Below are positions 4,086 to 64,000 of a DNA stretch of 64,000 bases, piece by piece (the first letter of the stretch is position 1; every line of letters starts with the position of its first letter). Made by a program: the position numbers and the translations under genes. The stretch comes from Alphaproteobacteria bacterium (lineage in GTDB: Bacteria > Pseudomonadota > Alphaproteobacteria > JBKEAR01). Where the stretch lies: NCBI GenBank assembly GCA_047972425.1, contig JBKEAR010000019.1, positions 1,298 to 65,297 on the forward strand. The letters are read 5' to 3'. The notes beneath the pieces were generated by a model. That model was not told the DNA's origin. It made no database searches and saw only the letters and a program-made list of their open reading frames with translations.

Positions 4086-4658
4086 ATGAATAGTAAGCCA
4101 GTTGAGCGAACATGTATTGTTACACGTAATAATGTATCACCAAAAGAGGCGATTCGTTTGGTCGTTTCGCCCAATGGCCAGCTATTATTTGACCTTAAGG
4201 GCAATTTGCCCGCCCGAGGATATTGGGTAACGGCAACAAGAGAGAATTTTGATGCCTTACTTAGTAACCCCAAAAGGCTTAAACAGATTAAAAATGTTAA
4301 AGAAGTTGCCGATGATTTTATAGAGAATCTCATTGCTGCTTTGCAAAGCCAAATATTAAACCAATTGGGTTTGGCACGGCGTGCCGGGCAATTAATTTTT
4401 GGTTTCGAAAAGGTCAAAATATGGTTAAAAGATAATAAACCTGCATTGGCTTTAATGGCAACAAACGGCTCTGAGAGCGAGATAGAACGTTTAGGGCTTA
4501 GCCGGTACGATGCACCGGTTTATCGGGTTTTAACTAAAGAACAGCAAGGGGCAGCACTGGGGCGAGAACATGTGGTGCATATTGTTTTAAAAAATGGTAA
4601 ACTCGCCCAAAATTTGAGTAAAGATTGCCAATTTTTGGCAGGATTTTTGGCAAAATAA
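4086..4658 (+). CDS. YlxR (DUF448) RNA-binding domain fused to L7Ae-like domain
   Basis: N-terminal ERTCIVTR...GRGYWV (YlxR-like); C-terminal LARRAGQLIFGFEKV (L7Ae/YlxQ-like); conserved position between nusA and infB. Confidence 0.8.
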   Translation: MNSKPVERTCIVTRNNVSPKEAIRLVVSPNGQLLFDLKGNLPARGYWVTATRENFDALLSNPKRLKQIKNVKEVADDFIENLIAALQSQILNQLGLARRAGQLIFGFEKVKIWLKDNKPALALMATNGSESEIERLGLSRYDAPVYRVLTKEQQGAALGREHVVHIVLKNGKLAQNLSKDCQFLAGFLAK

Positions 4659-4680
4659 ATAGATATAGGTTGATTATCTT

Positions 4681-7206
4681 ATGGCTGAAGAAAAGAAAAA
4701 AGAAACATTAACTTTAGGCACACTTTCGTTAGGCTCCAGTGGGGATTCAGGCAAAAGAAAAGGTGTTGCTGTAGAAGTTAAGAAAAAACGGACCTTTAAA
4801 AAAGGTGCCGATGGACAGCTGCACTCAGAAGGTGATGCACCAAAAACACAAGTTATTGATGCCGAAGAACCCATGAGCGCCGAGGCCGAAAGCAAACTAA
4901 CAACGGCCGAAAGAGAGCGCCGTGCAAAAGTATTAGAGGCAGCGCAGATAGAAGAAGAAAAACGCAAAGCCGAAGAAAAAAAACGTAAGGCAGCAGAAGC
5001 TAAGCGCAAAAAAGAAGCCGAGGCGGTAGCAGAAAAAGAGCGCCAAGCACAGCTAGAGGCGGAAAAAGCCGAGGCCGAAAAATCGGACGAAGAACGCCAA
5101 AAAGAAAAAGAAGCTCAAGAAAAAGAAGCCGCCCGTAAACGTTTAGAAGAAGAACGCGAGGCCGCCGAGCGCGCCCGTAAAGAAATGCAAGAGGCACGGC
5201 TTAAAGCCGAGGCTGTTGCGGCAAAAACCGAGGCCGGCCATGTGCGCCGCGATGATCGGGGTAAGGCGAAAAAGAAAAATCGCCGTGAGGATACAGAGGA
5301 TACCAGCCGTGCTAACCGGGGCGATAAAAAAACACGGGGTGGTTTTGACGAAGGCGAGCGTTCACGCTCGTTAGCCGCAATGCGCCGTGCCCGTGAAAAA
5401 CAAAAGAAAAAATTCTCTGATCAACCCAAAGAGAAACAAAAATTATATCGCGAGGTAACTATACCCGAAACTTTAACCGTGGGCGATTTAGCTAATCGGA
5501 TGAGCGAACGGGCGGCCGATGTGATTAAAGAGCTGATGAAACTTGGGATTATGGCAACGATTAACCAAACCATTGATGCCGATACAGCCGAGCTTGTGGC
5601 TGAAGAAATGGGACATAAAGTGGTACGCGTTTCGGAATCGGATGTTGAAGAAGCCTTGATTATAGAAGATGAAAGCGATGATGAAAACTTAGAGCCACGG
5701 GCACCGATTGTTACAATTATGGGCCATGTGGATCATGGGAAAACATCGCTGCTCGATGCTTTACGCTCCGCCAATGTGGCCGATAAAGAAGCGGGCGGGA
5801 TTACCCAGCATATTGGTGCGTATCAGGTATCGACCGATGATGGTAAAAAAATTACCTTTATTGATACACCCGGCCACGCTGCCTTTACCGAAATGCGTGC
5901 GCGTGGTGCCAAAATTACCGATATTGTGGTACTGATTGTTGCGGCAAATGATAGTGTGATGCCCCAAACGATTGAGGCAATTAACCATGCCCAAGCGGCA
6001 GGTGTGCCGATTATTGTGGCGATTAACAAAATTGATTTACCGGCGGCCAATCCGCAAAAAGTAAAAACCGATTTGCTCCAACATAATGTGGCCTTAGAGG
6101 ATTTTGGCGGTGATGTATTATCGGTAGAGATTTCTGCCAAAGCCCGTATTGGTTTAGAGGAACTTTTAGATACAATTATGTTGCAATCGGAAGTTTTAGA
6201 CCTTAAGGCCAATCCAAACCGCCCGGGTCGGGGTGCAATTGTGGAATCGCGTATGGAAAAAGGCCGTGGTTCGGTGGCAACAGCACTTATCCAGTCCGGT
6301 ACATTAAATGTGGGCGATATCTTTGTTGCCGGTGCCGAATGGGGGCGGGTGCGTGCTTTGTTAGATGACCATGGCGATCAGGTGAAATCGGCAGGGCCGG
6401 CGGTTCCGGTAGAGGTACTCGGTTTACAAGGTACACCGGCGGCGGGTGATGAGATTATTGTGGTGGCCGATGAAGCCAAAGCCCGCGAGATTTCCGAATA
6501 TCGCCAACGCAAAGAGCGCGAAGCCAAAGCGGCCGCTGCGGCAAAATCGGGGCTAGAAGCCTTAATGGAACATATGGCGCAAAATGAAGATATGGTAACA
6601 TTACCTGTTGTCATTAAAGCCGATGTTCATGGCTCGGTAGAAGCCATTGTGGGCGCGTTAGAGAAATTACAAACCGAAGATGCTCGGGTGCAAGTGCTCC
6701 ATTCGGGCGTGGGTGCAATTTCTGAAGCCGATATTACATTAGCCAATGCGTCAAGTGCTTTAATTATTGGCTTTAATGTCCGCGCCAACCCGCAAGCGCG
6801 CGAGACCGCCAAACGCGATAATGTGGATATTCGTTATTACTCGATTATTTACGAAGTGATTGATGATATGAAGCGTATATTATCGGGTATGTTGTCACCA
6901 GAAATTAAAGAGCATTTTATTGGTTATGCCCGTATTGACGAAGTGTTTAATATTACTAAAGTGGGTAAAGTTGCCGGCTGTATGGTAACCGAAGGCATTG
7001 TAAAACGTGGTGCCAAAGTGCGCTTGCTACGCGATAACGTGGTTATTCACGAAGGTGAACTGAGCCAACTGAAACGCTTTAAAGATGATGCCAAAGAAGT
7101 TCGCGAAGGCATGGAATGCGGTATGAGTTTTGCCAATTACGATGACCTTAAAGTGGGTGATATGATTGAATGCTTTGAGATTGAAGAAATTGCCAGAGAG
7201 ATATAA
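4681..7206 (+). CDS. infB: translation initiation factor IF-2
   Basis: 841 aa; GTPase motifs [21 protein letters not shown]; long K/E/A-rich N-terminus. Confidence 0.95.
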
Positions 7207-9219: not shown

Positions 9220-10633
9220 TATTTATCCGATACGCCTTTTTTGCTAAATCGTTGGTTAGTTGTTTAGCCAAAATATGGGCTTGCTCGATACCTAAGCGTT
9301 TTTCGGCCACTAAGGTGGCTAAAAAGCGGGCATCAATGCGCCTTGCAACATCGTGGCGCGCCGGTATCGATAAAAATGCCCGAGTATCGTCATTAAAGCC
9401 GGCCGTATTATAAAAACCCGCTGTTTCTGTAACATATTGGCGATAGCGCAACATACCCTCGGGGCTATCAAAAAACCACCAAGCCGGGCCTAATGTTAAG
9501 GCAGGGTAATGGCCGGCCAAAGGTGCAAGCTCGCGGGAATAATTGTCTTCATCTAAAGTAAACATAATTAAGCGAAAACGTGGGTCGTTACCAAATTTAT
9601 TGAGTATGGGCTTAAGGGCATGGGTGAACTCGCAATTCATAGGGATATCAGCCCCTTTATCGGCACCAAAATTATTAAAGATAGCATCGTTATGGTTGCG
9701 ATATGCCCCGGGGTGGAGCTGCATGACAAGCCCGTCATCAAGGCTCATTTCGGCCATTTTCATCAGCATGTGGCCGCGAAAGACCTCGCAATCTTTGGCG
9801 GTAACATTATCGTTATTGATAATTCGATTATATAAAGCTTCGGCCTCGGCAGGGGTTAAATCGATGGTAAATGCCGATGGAAAACCATGGTCCGATGCGG
9901 TGGCATTGCCAACCTCTTTAAAATAAGCGCGGCGATTTTGAAGGGCTTTAATATAACCCTTATAAGATAATGTATCCTCGCCAGTAATCTCCCCTAATTT
10001 TTGAATATGGGTTAAAAAGTTCGGAAATTCCGGATTGGTTACATTATCGGGGCGGAAGGTCGTGACAATTTTTGTTTTTAAATTGAGCGTATTAATCTTC
10101 TGATGCGCTTTTAAAGGGTCAAGCGGGTCTTCAGTTGTGGCAATAAACTTAATATTAAAACGGTCAAGCAGATGATGGATTTTATATTCATCGGTTTTCA
10201 GCGCAGCATCAATTTTATCGTAATATGCACTTGCATTATTGCCTGAAAGGCGTTGGTCAAAACCAAAAACTTCCGAAAATACGGTATCCAACCACATTTG
10301 CGAAGGTGTGCCCGCATAAAGATAATAATTATTGGCAAAAATATCCCATATTTTCCGGTTATCATGCTCTTTGGCGCTGCCATCGGCAAAGGGCACACCC
10401 AACTCTTCTAAAGTAATGCCTTGCGAGTACATCATGCGGTGCACATAATGGTCGGGCTTTATAAATAAAGATGCCGGGTCTGGAAAGTTGATATTATCGG
10501 CATACCATGTAGGGTCCGTATGGCCATGGGGGCTGATAATTGGTAAATCTTTAATTTCATTATAAATTTCTTTGGCTATGGATTTTTGTTCCTTATCCGA
10601 AGAAAAAAGACGATCCTCATGTAAATAACTCAT
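9215..10633 (-). CDS. uxaC: glucuronate isomerase (uronate isomerase)
   Basis: 472 aa; N-terminus ISPHGHTDP and overall similarity to UxaC. Confidence 0.9.
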   Translation of the reverse strand: MSYLHEDRLFSSDKEQKSIAKEIYNEIKDLPIISPHGHTDPTWYADNINFPDPASLFIKPDHYVHRMMYSQGITLEELGVPFADGSAKEHDNRKIWDIFANNYYLYAGTPSQMWLDTVFSEVFGFDQRLSGNNASAYYDKIDAALKTDEYKIHHLLDRFNIKFIATTEDPLDPLKAHQKINTLNLKTKIVTTFRPDNVTNPEFPNFLTHIQKLGEITGEDTLSYKGYIKALQNRRAYFKEVGNATASDHGFPSAFTIDLTPAEAEALYNRIINNDNVTAKDCEVFRGHMLMKMAEMSLDDGLVMQLHPGAYRNHNDAIFNNFGADKGADIPMNCEFTHALKPILNKFGNDPRFRLIMFTLDEDNYSRELAPLAGHYPALTLGPAWWFFDSPEGMLRYRQYVTETAGFYNTAGFNDDTRAFLSIPARHDVARRIDARFLATLVAEKRLGIEQAHILAKQLTNDLAKKAYRINI

Positions 10634-10651: not shown

Positions 10652-11980
10652 CTAACCCATCATACCAAATAATCGGGGTAGCGCAAGCGATATAGCAGGT
10701 ATATAAGTCACTAATAATAACGCAACAACCAATACGGCATAAAATGGTAAAAGCTTCGGTATAACTTCATCTAAGCGCACTTTAGCAATAGAGCTACCAA
10801 TGAATAACGCACTCCCCACAGGTGGGGTACAAATACCAATACACAAGTTAAAGGTAATGAATACACCAAAATGTACGGGGTCCATGCCTAAATCTTGGGC
10901 AATGGGTAAAAATATGGGGGTAAAGATGAGCAATGCCGGTGTCATATCCATAAATGTGCCCACAAGTAATAATACAAAGGTAATGATGAGCAGAAGCACA
11001 TATTTATTTTCGGAGAGTGATGTTAAAGAATTGGCGATAATGAATGGAATGTCGGTCATCACCATGGCAAATTGCATGCCCATAGATGTACCAATAAGCA
11101 AGAGTACAATCGAGGTGGTAATGACGGATTCTAAAATAATTTTGGGCAAATCGCCTATGCGTATTTCTTTATAAACAAAAGATAAAAACAAGGCATAAAC
11201 CACGGCGGCGGCCGAGGCCTCGGTGGGTGTAACCTTACCCGTAATAATACCGCCCATAACCAATACAATAAGCAGTAAAGAGGGGATAGCGCGGATAGTA
11301 TATTGAATAGCCGCATTAAAAGTGACTTTTTCCGCAATTGGGTAATTATGGCGCACCGCGTAAATACCGGCAACCAACATAAGGCCTAAGCCCATGATAA
11401 TACCCGGTAAATAGCCGGCCAAAAATAATGCCCCAACCGATGTACCGCCCGAAACAAGCGAGTAAACAATAAATGTGTTTGATGGCGGAATAAGCAACCC
11501 TGTTGGGCAAGATGAAATATTGACTGCGGCCGAAAATGCAGGCTCGTAACCCTCCTTTTTTTGCAAGGGTGCCATAACCCCGCCAACGGCTGCGGCCGAT
11601 GCAACGGCCGAGCCCGAAATAGCACCAAAAAGCATATTAGATGCAATATTACAATGGGCAAGGCTACCGGGCATACGGCCAACCAAAACTTTAGCAAAGT
11701 CGATAAGGCGGGTGGCAATACCGCCGCTATTCATTATATTACCCGCCAATATAAAAAACGGTATGGCTAAAAGCGGAAAACTATCTAAGCCTGATGCCAT
11801 GCGTTGGGCTAAGGTAAAGGTACTTTCATCTAACGCCACCGGAAGTGGTGTACCAAATACCATATTCGCCGCAACTAAAGCGATAACCGAGGATAAACCA
11901 ATAGCAAACGAAATGGGCACACCCAAGGCCAAAAATATGGCAAAGCTACCGAATAAAGCGATAATTCCAATCCATTCCAT
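10652..11980 (-). CDS. TRAP transporter large permease (DctM family)
   Basis: 442 aa polytopic membrane protein, DctM-like. Confidence 0.85.
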   Translation of the reverse strand: MEWIGIIALFGSFAIFLALGVPISFAIGLSSVIALVAANMVFGTPLPVALDESTFTLAQRMASGLDSFPLLAIPFFILAGNIMNSGGIATRLIDFAKVLVGRMPGSLAHCNIASNMLFGAISGSAVASAAAVGGVMAPLQKKEGYEPAFSAAVNISSCPTGLLIPPSNTFIVYSLVSGGTSVGALFLAGYLPGIIMGLGLMLVAGIYAVRHNYPIAEKVTFNAAIQYTIRAIPSLLLIVLVMGGIITGKVTPTEASAAAVVYALFLSFVYKEIRIGDLPKIILESVITTSIVLLLIGTSMGMQFAMVMTDIPFIIANSLTSLSENKYVLLLIITFVLLLVGTFMDMTPALLIFTPIFLPIAQDLGMDPVHFGVFITFNLCIGICTPPVGSALFIGSSIAKVRLDEVIPKLLPFYAVLVVALLLVTYIPAISLALPRLFGMMG

Positions 11981-58975: not shown

Positions 58976-60229
58976 CTAGTATTTATTAATTTTGCGCCCG
59001 GTTTGGTTAGCCAAACGTTTGGCGGCATCGGATAATATTTTGGTTGGTTCTTTATCGGTTGTAATGGCTTCGGCAACAATTTTATTGCCTTCTTCCCGTG
59101 CGATTGAATAGTCAATTGTATAAGTAGCCTCGGGGATATCATTCACAACTTTCGATAAATCGGCCCATATCACTTGGCCACCAAAATAGGCGACGCCTTC
59201 GTTAAATGATGGCTCACTATAAACAGGCATATAGCTTGGGTATAATCCCCCTTTAAAGGCCTCTATTTGGTTGGCGATATTGGTTGTAAAAAATTCCATA
59301 AAATCATAGGCTAAATCAATATGTTCGCTTGTTGAGACAATCGCAAAATTACTACCACCAATATTGGCCGCGCTGCGTCCTTGGCTATCTTTTGGCAAGG
59401 GCATTACGCCCCAATTGCCCGACATATCGCTTGCATTGCTTTCAATTGTTCCGGCAAGCCAAGCGCCTGATGGTATAGCAACAATTTTACCTGTTGTAAT
59501 CGCTTGCACAAAGCCGTCCCAACCTTTGGCCGCTGTATAAATAATACCCGCTTTTTCCATTTCATCAATTAATGTTAGCGATTCAAGCGATGCCGGGCTG
59601 TTATAATCGATATTACCATCTTTATCAAAATAACCGGTGGCTCTTTCTTGCATTAATGTACGGTAAAATCCGTCATCATCAGTGCTTACGTTGGTCATAT
59701 ATGAATCAGTTGCTTCTCTGATTTTTTTACCGGCTTCTAAATAATCTTGCCAAGTTTCGATTGATGCGGCATCAACCCCGGCTTTTTCAAAAATATCACG
59801 CCGATAAAATACACCCACAGGGCCGATATCAAATGGCATGGCATAAAATTTACCATCGGCTTGTAATGTTGCTTTTTTAAAGGCCGGGAAGCTATCGCTA
59901 TATTGGTCGTAACCTTTTGCCGATAGATCCACAAATGCGTTGGGCCAATTGGCTAAAAACCCCGAAAAATATTCATCTTCTACTAAAAAGACATCGGGTA
60001 ATCCCTTGCCATTTGCTTGTAAGCCGATATTTACTTTTGTATACACATCGTTACGGCCGGTATCAATGATATTAATTTCGGCATCGGGGTGATTTTGCAT
60101 GTAAAGCTCTGCCGCTTTTTCAAGAACCGGAACATTAATGTTCCATGCCCAAATATCAATAGCTTCGGCAAAGCTTGATAAGCTTGTTGAAAGCATAATG
60201 GCCGTTAATACGGATTTTGTATATTTCAT
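58976..60229 (-). CDS. extracellular solute-binding protein (family 1), paralog B
   Basis: 417 aa with signal peptide; about 55% identical to the upstream paralog; same C-terminus AAKRLANQTGRKINKY. Confidence 0.8.
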   Translation of the reverse strand: MKYTKSVLTAIMLSTSLSSFAEAIDIWAWNINVPVLEKAAELYMQNHPDAEINIIDTGRNDVYTKVNIGLQANGKGLPDVFLVEDEYFSGFLANWPNAFVDLSAKGYDQYSDSFPAFKKATLQADGKFYAMPFDIGPVGVFYRRDIFEKAGVDAASIETWQDYLEAGKKIREATDSYMTNVSTDDDGFYRTLMQERATGYFDKDGNIDYNSPASLESLTLIDEMEKAGIIYTAAKGWDGFVQAITTGKIVAIPSGAWLAGTIESNASDMSGNWGVMPLPKDSQGRSAANIGGSNFAIVSTSEHIDLAYDFMEFFTTNIANQIEAFKGGLYPSYMPVYSEPSFNEGVAYFGGQVIWADLSKVVNDIPEATYTIDYSIAREEGNKIVAEAITTDKEPTKILSDAAKRLANQTGRKINKY

Positions 60230-60256: not shown

Positions 60257-61516
60257 TTAATATTTATTGATTTTACGTCCGGTCTGATTAGCCAAGCGTT
60301 TGGCGGCATCATTTAACGCTTTTTGAACATCGGCATCATTTAATACCACATCGCTTAAAACTTTAATCATCTCTTGGCGAGCCAAAGAATAGTCCATTGT
60401 AAATGTAACGGCAGGGATATTCTGTACGGTTTTACCAAACTCTGCCCAAATAGGCTGGTTATTAAAAAATTCAACGGGTGCATTAAAGCTATCAAGCGCA
60501 TAAACCGGTGTAAGGCTTGGGAATAATCCACCAACAAAAGCAGCCTCTTGCCATTCGGTTGTTGTTGTGAAAAACCGCATAAAGTCATAGGCAAGCTCTA
60601 CATTTTGGCTTGATGATGGTATGACAAAGTTGCTACCGCCAATATTCGATGCATTTTTCCCTTGCGAATTTTTAGGCAATGGCATTACTCCCCAATCGCC
60701 CGCTTGATTCGGCGCTTGTCTTTCAATTGTACCCGCAAGCCATGCGCCCGATGGTGTAGCGACAATACGGTTATTGACAAAAGCCTGCACAAAACTATCC
60801 CAGCCGATATTACCTGTATATAAAATACCGGCTTCGTCCATTTTTTTGATGTTGGTAAAAACTTCTATCATTTCAGGGCTGTTAAAGGCAATATTGCCGT
60901 CTTTATCAAAATAATGGGTATTCGATGCCCCAATCATGGCGCGAACCAATATTTCTTCGTCTGTGCGGATATCGGTCATAAAAGATCCGGTTACTTCTTT
61001 AATTTTTACACCGGCAGCAATATAATCGTCCCAAGTTTCAATGGATTTTGGGTCAACACCCGCTTTTTCAAAAATACTCGGCCGATAAAACACACCCACA
61101 GGGCCGGCATCGAACGGCATGCCATAAAATTTTCCGTTCATTTGGTTGGTTTCTACCTTAAACTGTGGGAAATACTGCGCATATTCGTCATATCCTAAAG
61201 CCGAAAGATCGGTAAAACCATTGGGCCAATTTTCTAAATATCCTTTTAAATGGGTATCTTCAACCAAAATAACATCAGCCAAACCTTTTCCATTGGCCTG
61301 TAGGCCAACAGATAATTTGGTGTAAACATCTTGCGAGCCAATATCCGATACATTAATTACCGCATTTGGGTTATCCTTCACATAAGCTTCTGCCGCTTTT
61401 TGTAATAAGGGTACATTGATATTCCATGCCCAAATTTGAATATTGCCTTCTGCAGCCCAGCTACTTAGACTGGTGGAAACTAAAATTGATGATAAAACTA
61501 TACTTAACTTTTTCAT
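60257..61516 (-). CDS. extracellular solute-binding protein (family 1), paralog A
   Basis: 419 aa with signal peptide. Confidence 0.8.
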   Translation of the reverse strand: MKKLSIVLSSILVSTSLSSWAAEGNIQIWAWNINVPLLQKAAEAYVKDNPNAVINVSDIGSQDVYTKLSVGLQANGKGLADVILVEDTHLKGYLENWPNGFTDLSALGYDEYAQYFPQFKVETNQMNGKFYGMPFDAGPVGVFYRPSIFEKAGVDPKSIETWDDYIAAGVKIKEVTGSFMTDIRTDEEILVRAMIGASNTHYFDKDGNIAFNSPEMIEVFTNIKKMDEAGILYTGNIGWDSFVQAFVNNRIVATPSGAWLAGTIERQAPNQAGDWGVMPLPKNSQGKNASNIGGSNFVIPSSSQNVELAYDFMRFFTTTTEWQEAAFVGGLFPSLTPVYALDSFNAPVEFFNNQPIWAEFGKTVQNIPAVTFTMDYSLARQEMIKVLSDVVLNDADVQKALNDAAKRLANQTGRKINKY

Positions 61517-61703: not shown

Positions 61704-62588
61704 ATGGTTGGCCATATCAATGTAAAAAAAGATGTTAAACAAGGCGCGCCTTTTAATCATCTAGCAAATGAGCATTCTACTTTTTGGTACCATGGTGCGC
61801 CCAATGTGATGAAAAATGAGCATTGGCATAATCATATTGAGTTTAATTTTATTAAACAAGGGGTGGTTGCTTATAATTATGATGGGCACAATATAGAATT
61901 TCCCTCTGGGCAGCTTATCTTTTTTTGGGGTGGTATTCCGCACCGAATGACAAATTTTCGGCTTAGTGATCAAAAGGGATTTTATAATTTCCATTATCCG
62001 TTAGAGGATTTTTTAATGGTTAATTTTGACCGTAAATTACACCGTTTATTACTCAGTGGGCATATCTTAACACTGAAAGCCCCCGATTTTTTGATAGAAC
62101 AATATTTTGAACTTTGGCGTATGGATATTCAAAAGCAGGGTATGGATATTTTTGACCGGATTAACTCGGATATTGCAGCATTATTTACGCGTTTTTCCTT
62201 TGAGACTTTGGCTTTTCCCCATGGAACCCAGCCGATTAAAAGTAAAGATATAACACCGAATATGTTATTATTTGTTAAAATTATCCGGTATATATTCGAG
62301 CATTTTCAAGAAGATATCCGCAATACCGATATTGCCGAGCATTTAGGTTTTCATGAAAATTATATTCAACGGGTTTTTAAAGATTTTTCAGGAAGTTCTA
62401 TTCGGCAATTTATTATTCATATTCGTTTAAAATATGCATGCTCATTGTTGCGCAACACCAATCGTTCGATATTTAATATTGTTATTGAAACCGGTTTTGG
62501 CTCCACCAGCCGATTTTATAAAGCCTTTGCCGATACCTACCAACAAACCCCCAAACAATATCGAGATATTTGGAAGCAAGAGAAATGA
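61704..62588 (+). CDS. AraC-family transcriptional regulator (cupin plus HTH)
   Basis: C-terminal double HTH_AraC; divergent from the sugar ABC operon. Confidence 0.8.
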   Translation: MVGHINVKKDVKQGAPFNHLANEHSTFWYHGAPNVMKNEHWHNHIEFNFIKQGVVAYNYDGHNIEFPSGQLIFFWGGIPHRMTNFRLSDQKGFYNFHYPLEDFLMVNFDRKLHRLLLSGHILTLKAPDFLIEQYFELWRMDIQKQGMDIFDRINSDIAALFTRFSFETLAFPHGTQPIKSKDITPNMLLFVKIIRYIFEHFQEDIRNTDIAEHLGFHENYIQRVFKDFSGSSIRQFIIHIRLKYACSLLRNTNRSIFNIVIETGFGSTSRFYKAFADTYQQTPKQYRDIWKQEK

Positions 62589-62591
62589 TAA

Positions 62592-62640
62592 ATGGAATGG
62601 CGCACCCGACAGGATTTGAAAATGTGACCTTTGCCTTCGG
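62592..62640 (-). other. tRNA 3'-end fragment (T-loop TTCAAATCC plus acceptor plus CCA) = probable att site of an integrated element
   Basis: Minus-strand ttcaaatcctgtcgggtgcgcca. No complementary 5' acceptor or T-stem upstream, so it is not an intact tRNA. Confidence 0.4.
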
Positions 62641-62807
62641 AGAGAAAATAATTTTATATTCACTTGTAATTATCCATAATCTTTGGTATTAATATAAATG
62701 AGTGTATTGCTTGATTGTATAGTATTTTAAGTATAAATGACTATAAATAATAATCAAGAATATTTTATAGGTAAGGGTCTTAATAGGGTCTTAAATCATG
62801 ATTAAAC

Positions 62808-64000
62808 AAATTACGCAAGCCTTAATTAATAATATTGAACCAAAAGAAAAGCCTTTTGAAGTCTTTGATACAAACGTTAAAGGGCTTTTATTGCGTGTTC
62901 AACCTACTGGTAATTGCACTTTCTATTTTGCGTTTAAAGCTTTGAATGGCAAGAAGGCACGAATTAAAATTGGACAAGCTAAAAGAAGTGGGGTTGGTGA
63001 TATAACTCCGATAATAGCAAGGAAAAGAGCTGAAGAATATAGGGTTATATGTGCAAGGGGTGTTGACCCTAGAGAGGAGATAAAAGAAAAAATAGCAAAA
63101 GCAACACAGGATAGAGGAAATACACTTTCCGCTTTCTCACAACACCAATACCAGCTTTATGTTAAAAGCCACCATAAGGACGCTTATAATACTATCCAGC
63201 GATTAAAGCATTTTGAAAAAGAATGGGGAGATTTACCCTTAGATAAAATCACCACTAAGCACATTGAGGATTATCGACAAAAGAGGATTAAGCAGGGACT
63301 AACACACGCAACAATCAACAGGGACTTAAATATATTGAAAGGGTTATTTTCTAGGGGTATTGAGTGGGGAGCAATAGCAGATACTCCTTTCCGCCGTTTA
63401 AAGAACCTTAGAGTGGATAAAAAAGGAAACACAAGGTTTCTTTCCAAAGAGGAAGAGCAAGCCTTAAGAGGGGCTTTAAGGGAGCGTGATAGGCTAAAGA
63501 GGGAGAAAAGAGCATCATCTGATAAATGGCATCTTGATAGGGGGTATGAACTCCATACGGCACGCTATGAGGATTATGCGTATGTTGATTATTTAGAGCC
63601 AATGGTTTTAGTGGCTTTAAATACAGGCATGCGCAGGGGGGAGTTGTTATCTTTAACATGGCAGGATATTGACCTTAAACAAAATATCATTTCACTAAAA
63701 GGAAAGAATACAAAGTCAGCCCAAAGCCGTAACATACCTATGAATGATGAAGTGAAAGATATAATCACAAAGTTACATGATGAAGGTGTAACCGCTGGAG
63801 ATTATCTTTTTACCCACCCACTAACTGGAAAGCCTATGAAAGAGATTGGCAAGGCTTGGAGAGAAGTGGTAAAACAAGCAGGTATTGAGGGTTTTCGTTT
63901 CCACGATTTAAGGCATACCTTTGCATCTAACCTTGCAAGGCATAATCAAAGCCCTTATACCCTTCAATCGTTATTAGGACATAGTAGCTTAGAAATGGTA
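62808..64000 (+). CDS. tyrosine-type site-specific recombinase / P4-like phage integrase (3' end outside window)
   Basis: Manual translation gives MIKQITQALINNIEPKEKPFEVFDTNVKGLLLRVQPTGNCTFYF (Arm-type DUF4102 N-terminus) ... LNTGMRRGELLSLTWQDID ... FRFHDLRHTFAS (integrase catalytic R...HxxR). Open to the window end, hence absent from the ORF track. Confidence 0.85.

Follow-up and report, generated by a model that had tools for sequence, protein, structure and literature searches.

Wherever a tyrosine integrase gene lies close to a piece of a tRNA gene, it has to be asked whether the two together form the edge of an integrated element, on which side of that edge the element is situated, and whether it is still intact. 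This question arises at the right-hand end of the window, by which we mean the whole stretch of 64,000 nucleotides that was analysed. Positions 62598-64000 very probably represent a junction of an element that was integrated site-specifically into a minus-strand tRNA-Arg(CCG) gene, in its 3' half. The element is a genomic island, a prophage or a satellite.

The integrase

The integrase gene starts with an ATG at position 62798 and continues on the plus strand to the end of the window (62798..64000), which covers codons 1-401 of 421. The open reading frame, unlisted among the predicted genes, had been noticed in the first-pass annotation, which placed its start at 62808; the gene is real and carries the arm and catalytic domains ascribed to it, and its start was shifted to 62798. 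Pfam assigns an Arm-DNA-bind_3 domain (PF13356) to residues 6-97 (E 2.2e-12), an Int_N/SAM-like core-binding domain to residues 115-205 and a catalytic Phage_integrase domain to residues 269-401 (E 2.6e-30). The full-length protein, P0001, counts 421 amino acids, is 100% identical across the 401 amino acids encoded in the window, and ends in LEMVQRYAHIGDDTLQDAVNSLLD. The catalytic residues Arg279, Lys306, His369, Arg372 and His395 are encoded within the window, and Tyr404, encoded beyond position 64000, was read from P0001; all six are invariant in an alignment of 16 members. With this catalytic set and separate arm-binding and core-binding domains, P0001 is a heterobivalent (lambda-Int-like) tyrosine recombinase. 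Since the protein is full length and has its catalytic tyrosine just past the window, the gene is not disrupted, and the initial concern that it might be broken immediately outside the window turned out to be unfounded.

No integrase relative with more than 54% identity was found anywhere, and the exact P0001 sequence is recorded once, so that a second, independent copy of the element is lacking. The relatives obtained in a search of genome contigs with P0001 were all of about 22-40% identity in their best segment, and the closest relative of the integrase, P0002, is encoded on a 1.8-kb contig without upstream DNA. An excisionase is not visible in the window.

The displaced tRNA-Arg(CCG) fragment

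The tRNA-like piece upstream of the integrase gene is 45 nt long (62598-62642, minus strand) and corresponds to tRNA positions 76 to 32, i.e. from the CCA end back to the anticodon loop CTCCGAA. As a standard for comparison, intact tRNA-Arg(CCG) genes from 26 metagenome loci were used. Against these, 42 of the 45 positions match, and the last 23 nt match the intact tRNA 3' end without a difference. This perfect, host-derived half of the displaced fragment (62598..62620, minus strand) is the 23-mer TTCAAATCCTGTCGGGTGCGCCA, which is composed of the T-loop TTCAAAT, the T-stem 3' strand CCTGT, the acceptor 3' strand CGGGTGC, the discriminator G and CCA, and which occurs as a single copy in the window even when up to 3 mismatches are allowed. 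The adjoining imperfect stretch (62621..62642, minus strand; tRNA positions 53 to 32) spans the T-stem 5' strand, the variable loop, the anticodon stem 3' strand and the anticodon loop, and contains the three deviations from the consensus: G53T at 62621, G52T at 62622 and G43A at 62631. Most likely, this is the half of the att homology that the element brought in with its attP. Thus, the 23-nt core proposed at first is correct as far as perfect identity is concerned, whereas the att homology as a whole extends over 45 nt and starts from the anticodon loop.

Since ARAGORN detects no tRNA gene in the 64-kb window and an Rfam scan of the whole window at gathering thresholds gives no match, the fragment lacks a 5' half, which agrees with the original description of a minus-strand tRNA 3' fragment ending in CCA; at permissive E-values, Rfam produced only chance miRNA and sRNA matches near the fragment. 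Such truncated copies are not rare. About one third of 62 metagenome loci that share the tRNA-Arg(CCG) 3' end are 3' halves without a 5' half, almost all of which begin with the anticodon loop or slightly ahead of it. Judged from these loci, tRNA-Arg(CCG) is a frequent integration target.

The junction with the host flank

On its left side, the CCA end of the fragment is separated by 9 nt from the stop codon of a gene for an AraC-family regulator (61704..62588, plus strand; Pfam HTH_18, HTH_AraC and Cupin_2), which is part of the host flank and lies directly downstream of the tRNA 3' end. The exact AraC product is also present on the metagenomic Logan contigs L001-L003. Over 4.8-10.9 kb, these contigs show 99.94-99.96% nucleotide identity to the window, and this identity ends exactly at position 62620. 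Past this point L001 continues with CCTGTG, which is an intact T-stem, whereas the window has AATGTG; the contig stops 6 nt beyond the junction. L002 and L003 terminate at the junction base itself, as expected at a fork in the assembly graph, with one of the paths resembling the window. Since near-identical contigs diverge from the window exactly at 62620, one of them into an intact T-stem, 62620|62621 is, on the evidence of these alignments, to be regarded as a recombination junction and not as part of a decayed tRNA.

A fully sequenced empty site was not found, and the 6 nt in L001 are what is known of the alternative allele; a metagenome scan with a 40-mer composed of the flank and the intact tRNA gave 0 matches. 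Three AraC relatives of 66-71% identity that were looked up have kept the GH2/ABC/AraC cassette. Their other neighbours differ, and there is no tRNA at the corresponding position, so that they are unusable as empty sites. An island is not clearly marked by base composition, with 38.5% G+C for the integrase gene and 39.8% for the flank. The possibility of an island to the left of the fragment was rejected, as the 64 kb contain no tRNA, no second copy of the core and no other integrase; it is also contradicted by the orientation of the CCA end, which faces the conserved AraC flank.

The arm region

Between the att core and the start codon of the integrase gene lies an AT-rich arm region of 155 bp with 21% G+C (62643..62797), which presumably holds the int promoter and binding sites for recombination proteins; a promoter search in this segment revealed only weak promoter-like hexamers. 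It contains two perfect tandem copies of AGGGTCTTAA (62774..62794, plus strand), spaced 11 bp from start to start and ending 4 nt before the ATG, which are candidates for the arm-type sites that the N-terminal arm domain would bind. Tandem repeats of other sequences with the same 11-bp spacing are present in the related loci L084, L086, L089 and L126, as well as in 18 of 28 clade loci from IMG/VR, where the chance of finding such repeats is about 1.3% per locus. A repeat search in the window also detected a second pair, TATAAATGAGTGTA and TATAAATGACTATA, located 39 bp apart (62693..62745, plus strand), which may be putative sites for an accessory protein or additional arm sites.

Related islands

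The same layout recurs throughout the integrase clade: a tRNA 3' half on the minus strand, 140-265 bp of intervening DNA, tandem repeats 11 bp apart, and the integrase gene on the plus strand. It is common to all relatives of 35-50% identity for which upstream DNA is available and to about 24 of the 28 loci from IMG/VR, a viral collection. In the relatives L084, L086/L088, L089/L090 and L126 (35-50% identity), the minus-strand 3' half upstream of int is derived from tRNA-Gly-GCC, tRNA-Ala-CGC, a tRNA with a CAT anticodon and tRNA-Arg-CCG, respectively, the distance to int is 140-190 bp where measured, and an intact tRNA adjoining int is absent. Several relatives, such as L086 and L089, have host genes on the left of the fragment. 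In the five relatives that are complete, an intact minus-strand tRNA is situated 5-10.5 kb to the right, and the direct repeats begin at the anticodon stem or loop. These complete islands are L084 (5.2 kb, tRNA-Gly), L163 and L204 (both Arg-CCG), L166 (Arg-CCT) and L199 (Pro-CGG). That the window contains the left edge of an element extending to the right, as was suggested from the start, is supported by the identity break at 62620|62621, by this clade-wide layout and by the complete islands in relatives.

The genes carried by the relatives are diverse: L089 has a type I restriction-modification system, L084 an HTH_17/antirepressor islet and L163 a second integrase with capsid and tail genes, and in a Pseudomonas record of a relative there is a cox/primase/Rhs region. 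Guessing the cargo of the present element from its relatives was considered and rejected, because their gene contents differ and such an inference is not transferable.

Comparison with known systems

The closest parallel is provided by the tDNA islands collected in Islander, in which a tyrosine integrase and a displaced 3' tDNA fragment mark one end of the island. Both this principle of the displaced fragment and the distinction between anticodon and T-stem attP classes have been described (PMC4383910). Like such islands, the locus has tRNA homology that runs from the anticodon loop to CCA, and in the relatives L084, L163, L166, L199 and L204 a regenerated tRNA is found at the opposite end. 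It differs in that identity is perfect from the T-loop only (23 nt), the part between anticodon and T-stem having 3 mismatches, so that by the perfect repeat alone the site would be scored in the Islander T-stem/junction class. In the anticodon-loop attP class (Islander class A, or Williams sublocation I), the block of identity shared by the att copies begins at the anticodon loop, which is also the place of the crossover. Here, similarity starts from position 32, as in L126 and others, whereas identity with the alternative allele ends at position 54.

The integrase had been called P4-type, and this holds for its N-terminus, which as in P4 (NC_001609) and CP4-57 consists of an Arm-DNA-bind_3 domain (the former DUF4102) and matches the CP4-like structure 3jtz (E 5.9e-5). 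Further similarities are the position of the core upstream of int, at a distance of about 150 bp in P4 and of 155 bp here, and the annotated arm repeats of P4 (3942-3965), which abut the start of int as do the two candidate AGGGTCTTAA copies here. The designation does not extend to the catalytic domain. A BLASTP comparison with P4 Int gave E = 0.014 with a match confined to the arm domain and no significant similarity in the catalytic region, and the two proteins are 17% identical in the alignment; a close relationship to P4 Int was rejected on the basis of this restricted match. The orientation does not fit either. The P4 core GAGTCCGGCCTTCGGCACCA, which belongs to the 3' end of leuX, begins in the T-loop and lies on the int strand, so that P4-type int genes adjoin the intact tRNA, whereas the core in the window is on the strand opposite to int, which therefore adjoins the displaced fragment and not the intact tRNA.

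Among solved structures, the catalytic domains nearest to that of P0001 are 5c6k (E 1.7e-16), labelled 'Integrase' in the PDB and presumably the integrase of phage P2, XerA (5hxy; 6.4e-13) and HP1 Int (1aih; 2.3e-10), with the 'Int protein' 6en0 also among them. NCBIfam returned only sub-threshold Xer models, and no curated threshold was reached. By these scores, the catalytic domain is to be placed closer to P2, HP1 and Xer than to P4, all matches being distant. A comparable combination was described in a survey of tDNA insertions in K. pneumoniae, where the catalytic domain of 'clade II' integrases is HP1-like, an Arm N-terminus is present in some cases, and the attB spans the anticodon loop to CCA (bioRxiv 10.1101/2020.11.02.365908).

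Another instructive system is KplE1 (CPS-53), with IntS and TorI at argW. In KplE1 as well as here the 5' end of int faces the att junction, and therefore the promoter and arm-type sites overlap. Negative autoregulation was reported for KplE1 IntS, where the int promoter overlaps the att region, and likewise for P4 (Panis et al. 2010, PMC2951348). The difference is that in KplE1 the tRNA and int are co-oriented, with int beside the tRNA, whereas the arrangement here is divergent and int is beside the displaced fragment.

Integration and its alternatives

The arrangement is a common and well understood one, and the locus is an ordinary new case. The circular form of the element would have carried an attP with a 45-nt tRNA copy, from the anticodon loop to CCA, located about 155 bp upstream of int and divergent from it. 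Recombination of this attP with the chromosomal tRNA gene by Int would have left the original 3' end beside the AraC gene as the displaced fragment, while on the far, right-hand side of the island a functional tRNA would be completed by the copy that the element brought along. Positions 43, 52 and 53, where the mismatches occur, are all on the element's side of the point at which identity breaks off; strand exchange was therefore most likely in the T-loop or on the acceptor side, 3' of position 53. The two AGGGTCTTAA copies abutting the ATG with their 11-bp spacing would serve as arm-type sites of the N-terminal domain. Because these repeats overlap the int promoter or leader, it is probable that Int represses its own gene. 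The body of the island, any excisionase and the cargo would be located beyond position 64000.

It could be argued that the integration was genuine but that the element is now an immobile remnant, which has lost its far att site or excision functions or has little or no cargo, with G52T, G53T and G43A being due to decay of the host fragment after a crossover in the anticodon loop. The fragment copy is indeed damaged in the T-stem, islands with damaged fragments are on record in Islander (PMC4383910), the integrase is broken or split in the two closest relatives (a frameshift at 1941 in L084; an arm domain encoded by a separate ORF in L243), and the far end lies outside the window. We nevertheless consider a remnant unlikely, in view of a full-length integrase with every catalytic residue present and candidate arm repeats in two perfect copies. 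Moreover, the flank has diverged by 0.04-0.06% from strains with the other allele, so that insertion or loss must be recent, and the 2-3 substitutions in 22 nt, where about 0.013 are expected from this divergence, are not explained by neutral decay.

An assembly artefact is less likely still. The sequence comes from a metagenome-assembled genome, different genomes have tRNA 3' ends in common as repeats, and three other assemblies break within the same tRNA, so that a host contig with an intact tRNA-Arg(CCG) might have been fused via the 23-nt core to the attP of a free plasmid or phage. However, perfect sharing extends over 23 nt only, which is shorter than the k-mers usually applied in final assembly, the join looks exactly as a true junction would, and flank, fragment and int follow one another in the same way in dozens of contigs of independent origin, of which several (L086 and L089) have host genes to the left. 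The ends of L002 and L003, exactly at the branch point of a second, window-like path, also argue against a chimera. The chance proximity of a decayed tRNA pseudogene and an unrelated integrase gene can practically be dismissed; nothing specific speaks for it apart from a second att copy being outside the window, whereas the identity break at the T-loop is sharp in comparison with strains that are 99.94-99.96% identical, the tRNA half has a conserved distance and orientation relative to int throughout the clade, with many different tRNAs involved, and exactly such fragments bound the complete islands of relatives.

Altered guanines in the T-stem

Wherever mismatches between the two att copies were seen within the clade, the fragment copy has T in place of G at tRNA position 52 or 53. 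This is the case in the window (G52T and G53T), in L084 (G53T) and in L199 (G52T); the additional G43A of the window may be the host's own sequence. That the integrase-proximal att copy of this clade is systematically altered at the invariant T-stem guanines is a doubtful proposition, for which the odds are rather poor. If the G-to-T changes are element-borne, strand exchange by integrases whose att homology starts from the anticodon loop would actually take place in the T-loop. Another explanation could be selection for the changes, since a mismatch in the middle splits the repeat of 45-49 nt into blocks that are too short for RecA-dependent deletion, and the island would thereby be stabilised. 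Either reading, if true, would imply that 'anticodon-class' att sites need reinterpretation. For now, the G52/G53-to-T pattern in the displaced copy is a small and unexplained one.

Implications

In terms of scientific standing the present case of tDNA integration is routine; thousands of such islands have been catalogued. For annotation, it means that the tRNA-like piece should be designated neither as a tRNA nor as an independently arisen pseudogene, that the DNA to the right of 62620 is horizontally acquired, and that the working tRNA-Arg(CCG) of the genome is to be sought at the opposite end of the island. For curation of metagenome-assembled genomes, the site is strain-variable and a place where assemblies break. 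As a by-product, a widespread clade of integrases is described that combine an arm domain with a P2/HP1/Xer-like catalytic domain, and whose genes have an att core that is divergent and lies some 150-250 bp upstream, together with arm repeats that follow an 11-bp phasing.

A displaced tRNA fragment beside an integrase gene

Near its right end the window carries, at 62598–62642 on the minus strand, the 3' piece of a tRNA-Arg(CCG) gene (plus strand TGGCGCACCCGACAGGATTTGAAAATGTGACCTTTGCCTTCGGAG; reverse complement CTCCGAAGGCAAAGGTCACATTTTCAAATCCTGTCGGGTGCGCCA). A reference for this fragment was obtained by scanning JGI metagenomes with the 3' 29 nt including an intact T-stem, which gave 62 loci; 26 of these carry GCACCCGTAGCTCAGCTGGATAGAGCGCTGCCCTCCGAAGGCAGAGGTCACAGGTTCAAATCCTGTCGGGTGCGCCA, a tRNA-Arg gene with a CCG anticodon. 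As compared to this intact gene, the window piece spans tRNA positions 32–76 (anticodon loop to CCA) with three differences, G43A, G52T and G53T. The part at 62598–62620 is a perfect copy of the last 23 nt, from T-loop to CCA, and this 23-mer occurs once in the window, even at up to three mismatches. The 5' half of a tRNA has no counterpart beyond position 32, where the window reads ...AATTATTTTCT, and no tRNA was found by ARAGORN in the whole 64 kb or by Rfam in the window at permissive and gathering thresholds. Thus, the tRNA 3' fragment without a 5' half that was proposed in the first-pass annotation is borne out, as is its perfect 23-nt core, but the tRNA-like stretch is longer than was described. 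An AraC-family gene (61704–62588) is convergent with the tRNA piece, its stop codon lying 9 nt before the CCA end. Two mechanical ORFs, at 62434–62619 (+, 61 aa) and 62442–62663 (−, 73 aa), run across both the tRNA fragment and the 3' end of the AraC gene; they are almost certainly not genes but could be wrongly annotated as hypothetical proteins at the att site.

The integrase gene starts at an ATG at 62798 (+), not at 62808 as first annotated, and runs as an open frame beyond the window end. Three Pfam domains were found in its product: Arm-DNA-bind_3 (6–97), Int_N/SAM-like (115–205) and Phage_integrase (269–401). A 421-aa protein from a 68,557-nt contig of an "Alphaproteobacteria bacterium" MAG in NCBI is 100% identical to the window ORF and supplies the 20 residues outside the window, including the RYAH tyrosine. 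The residues R279, K306, H369, R372, H395 and Y404 are invariant in a 16-member alignment. Disruption of the gene just past the window, which was to be checked, is absent from this full-length protein with its catalytic residues, and judged by its sequence the integrase is intact. No second integrase was found in the window.

The junction at 62620|62621

The exact AraC protein is encoded on three Logan contigs (SRR30067232-4), the DNA of which is 99.94–99.96% identical to the window over 4.8–10.9 kb, with every alignment stopping exactly at 62620. Contig L001 continues past the junction (10917–10923) for 6 nt, CCTGTG, which is the strand of an intact T-stem, where the window has AATGTG; L002 (at 10917) and L003 (at 4839) end at the base equivalent to 62620. 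De Bruijn contigs stop where two paths diverge. At a rate of 6–7 differences per 10.9 kb, the 22 nt that follow should contain about 0.013, whereas the window differs from L001 at two of the 6 comparable nt and from the tRNA consensus at three positions. Since identity ends abruptly and the differences are far above expectation, 62620|62621 is, on this comparison, a boundary between DNA of different origins. A slowly decaying tRNA pseudogene was rejected, as this would have to account for 2–3 differences in 22 nt. The downstream side of the tRNA faces left, towards AraC, so the foreign DNA lies to the right of the junction.

In all three independent Logan assemblies, which come from near-identical strains, the contig breaks within the tRNA, and in two it does so at precisely the base of divergence; this points to a mixture of occupied and empty alleles, or of different occupants, in these samples. 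There are signs of recent presence/absence variation at the junction. No empty site, and no tRNA, was found next to the three AraC relatives at 66–71% identity that were looked up; these keep the GH2/ABC transporter/AraC sugar-utilisation cassette, and they provide no empty site because they have other neighbours and lack the tRNA. The DNA past the AraC homologue is different in each (an EVE-domain gene with a PAS kinase, a TctABC transporter, or a lytic transglycosylase, on L155, L158/L159 and L160), and synteny breaks recurrently at the AraC end of the cassette. In the window, two adjacent paralogous SBP_bac_1 sugar-binding-protein genes (58976–60229 and 60257–61516, −; 417 and 419 aa) are located upstream of the genes for the ABC permeases and the GH2 glycosidase. 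Their products are very similar at both termini; L155 has one such copy and L158 two.

Layout in the integrase clade

Contigs of integrase relatives at 35–50% identity were examined for the same arrangement. In L084 (50%), the 3' half of a tRNA-Gly(GCC) (−) precedes int by about 155 bp, and the intact tRNA-Gly (−) is found 5.2 kb further right; the two share a direct repeat of about 49 nt, which starts from the anticodon stem and has a single mismatch, G53T in the fragment copy. In L089/L090 (37%), int lies between a CAT-anticodon 3' half and a type I restriction-modification system; L086/L088 (39%) have the 3' half of a tRNA-Ala(CGC), and L126 (35%) a tRNA-Arg(CCG) 3' half as in the window, beginning with CTCCGAA about 125 bp upstream of int. 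An intact tRNA adjoins int in none of these contigs. When IMG/VR was scanned with the alignment of the clade, 80 loci were obtained, 28 with upstream DNA; about 24 of the latter have a minus-strand tRNA 3' half 136–265 nt upstream of int, and only two gave an ARAGORN tRNA call there. In the four complete IMG/VR islands, L163 and L204 (Arg-CCG), L166 (Arg-CCT) and L199 (Pro-CGG), the intact tRNA (−) lies about 9.6–10.7 kb to the right and the repeats begin at the anticodon stem/loop. More distant relatives (22–40% identity over the best segment) have a different layout, with int converging on an intact tRNA. The island-boundary reading of the first-pass annotation thus holds, given the identity break at 62620, the layout common to the clade and the complete relatives with an intact tRNA. 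Moreover, tRNA-Arg(CCG) is a popular target, since about one third of the 62 JGI loci with its 3' end are 3' halves lacking a 5' half, nearly all of which begin at or just before the anticodon loop.

The cargo of the relatives is heterogeneous and should not be transferred to the window island. The islet of L084, complete at 5.2 kb, contains P22_AR_N fragments and an excisionase-like gene of the HTH_17 type. L163 (79–9799) has two integrase genes (~254–1462 and ~4190–5503) between fragment and intact tRNA, and also encodes a head protease, a major head protein, a tail assembly protein and a lipoprotein; here an islet and a prophage remnant have probably been joined, in tandem or as a composite. 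The two closest integrase relatives are both interrupted: a frameshift at 1941 splits the catalytic domain in L084 (919–2138), and in L243 (1–1305; 54% identity) the arm domain is apparently a separate 58-aa ORF. At the place where the other clade members carry just a 3' half, ARAGORN called full tRNAs in L179 (124–198, −) and L201 (2793–2865, −), divergent from int and with the anticodon at an unusual position (33 and 31, respectively); the calls may be spurious, made on fragments, or may reflect an arrangement that really differs.

Relation to known integrases and candidate arm-type sites

The earlier label "P4-type" is appropriate for the arm domain, which contains PF13356 and matches the CP4-like arm-domain structure 3jtz, but not for the catalytic domain and the core orientation. 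The BLASTP match of P4 Int is limited to the arm domain (E = 0.014), and NCBIfam gave sub-threshold Xer models only. The nearest solved catalytic domains are 5c6k (listed as "Integrase"; presumably the phage P2 integrase), XerA, "Int protein" (6en0) and HP1 Int. The 20-bp core of P4 (leuX 3' end from the T-loop) is on the int strand, which places int beside the intact tRNA, whereas in the window the core is on the strand opposite to int. "Clade II" of a K. pneumoniae survey (bioRxiv 10.1101/2020.11.02.365908) likewise combines an HP1-like catalytic domain, in some cases with an arm N-terminus, and an attB from anticodon loop to CCA. In Islander, 2083 islands have an anticodon-centred attP and 1836 have sites in the T-stem region (PMC4383910).

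Two perfect copies of AGGGTCTTAA, 11 bp apart, end 4 nt before the ATG of int. Tandem repeats of other sequences but with 11-bp phasing were also found ahead of int in 18 of the 28 IMG/VR loci, as well as in L084, L086, L089 and L126, the chance occurrence being about 1.3% per locus as estimated by shuffling. Because this phasing recurs in the clade and the annotated arm repeats of P4 are at the same position, the AGGGTCTTAA repeats are likely arm-type sites for the N-terminal domain. With these repeats overlapping the leader/promoter region of int, the gene would be expected to be negatively autoregulated, by analogy with KplE1 IntS and P4 Int (PMC2951348). In L089, the repeat motif GTGGACTT is also present within the T-arm of the tRNA fragment (9812–9819 vs 9976–9994), perhaps by chance, or perhaps because arm-like and core-like recognition overlap.

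Strand exchange and the origin of the mismatches

The element most likely integrated by the standard displaced-fragment mechanism of tRNA-targeting islands (principle in PMC4383910), with an attP that carries a copy of the tRNA 3' part. Recombination would split the tRNA gene, with the element copy regenerating the tRNA at one end and the original piece being displaced to the other; in the window, the displaced piece lies at the integrase end, since the attP core and int diverge. The stretch with A43, T52 and T53 falls beyond the identity break, within the foreign DNA. These bases are therefore most simply read as derived from attP, and strand exchange would have taken place past position 53, in the T-loop or further 3'. 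Alternatively, crossover may have occurred in the anticodon loop, the displaced host fragment having changed later, but this needs 2–3 substitutions while the flank diverged by just 0.04–0.06%.

All mismatches between att copies seen in the clade are G-to-T changes at the conserved T-stem position 52 or 53, in the int-proximal copy: G52T and G53T in the window (62621–62622), G53T in L084 (~737) and G52T in L199 (fragment copy, ~216–260). The repeats of L163, L166 and L204 are perfect, and positions 52/53 are near the middle of the 45–49-nt repeat; in L067, a distant relative outside the clade, the difference is at T-loop position 57. The G-to-T changes could be an attP feature, a hotspot, or the result of selection against RecA-mediated loss. 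Apart from this mildly unusual pattern, the junction at tRNA-Arg(CCG) is a real and correctly recognised island boundary, an ordinary example of a well-known type.
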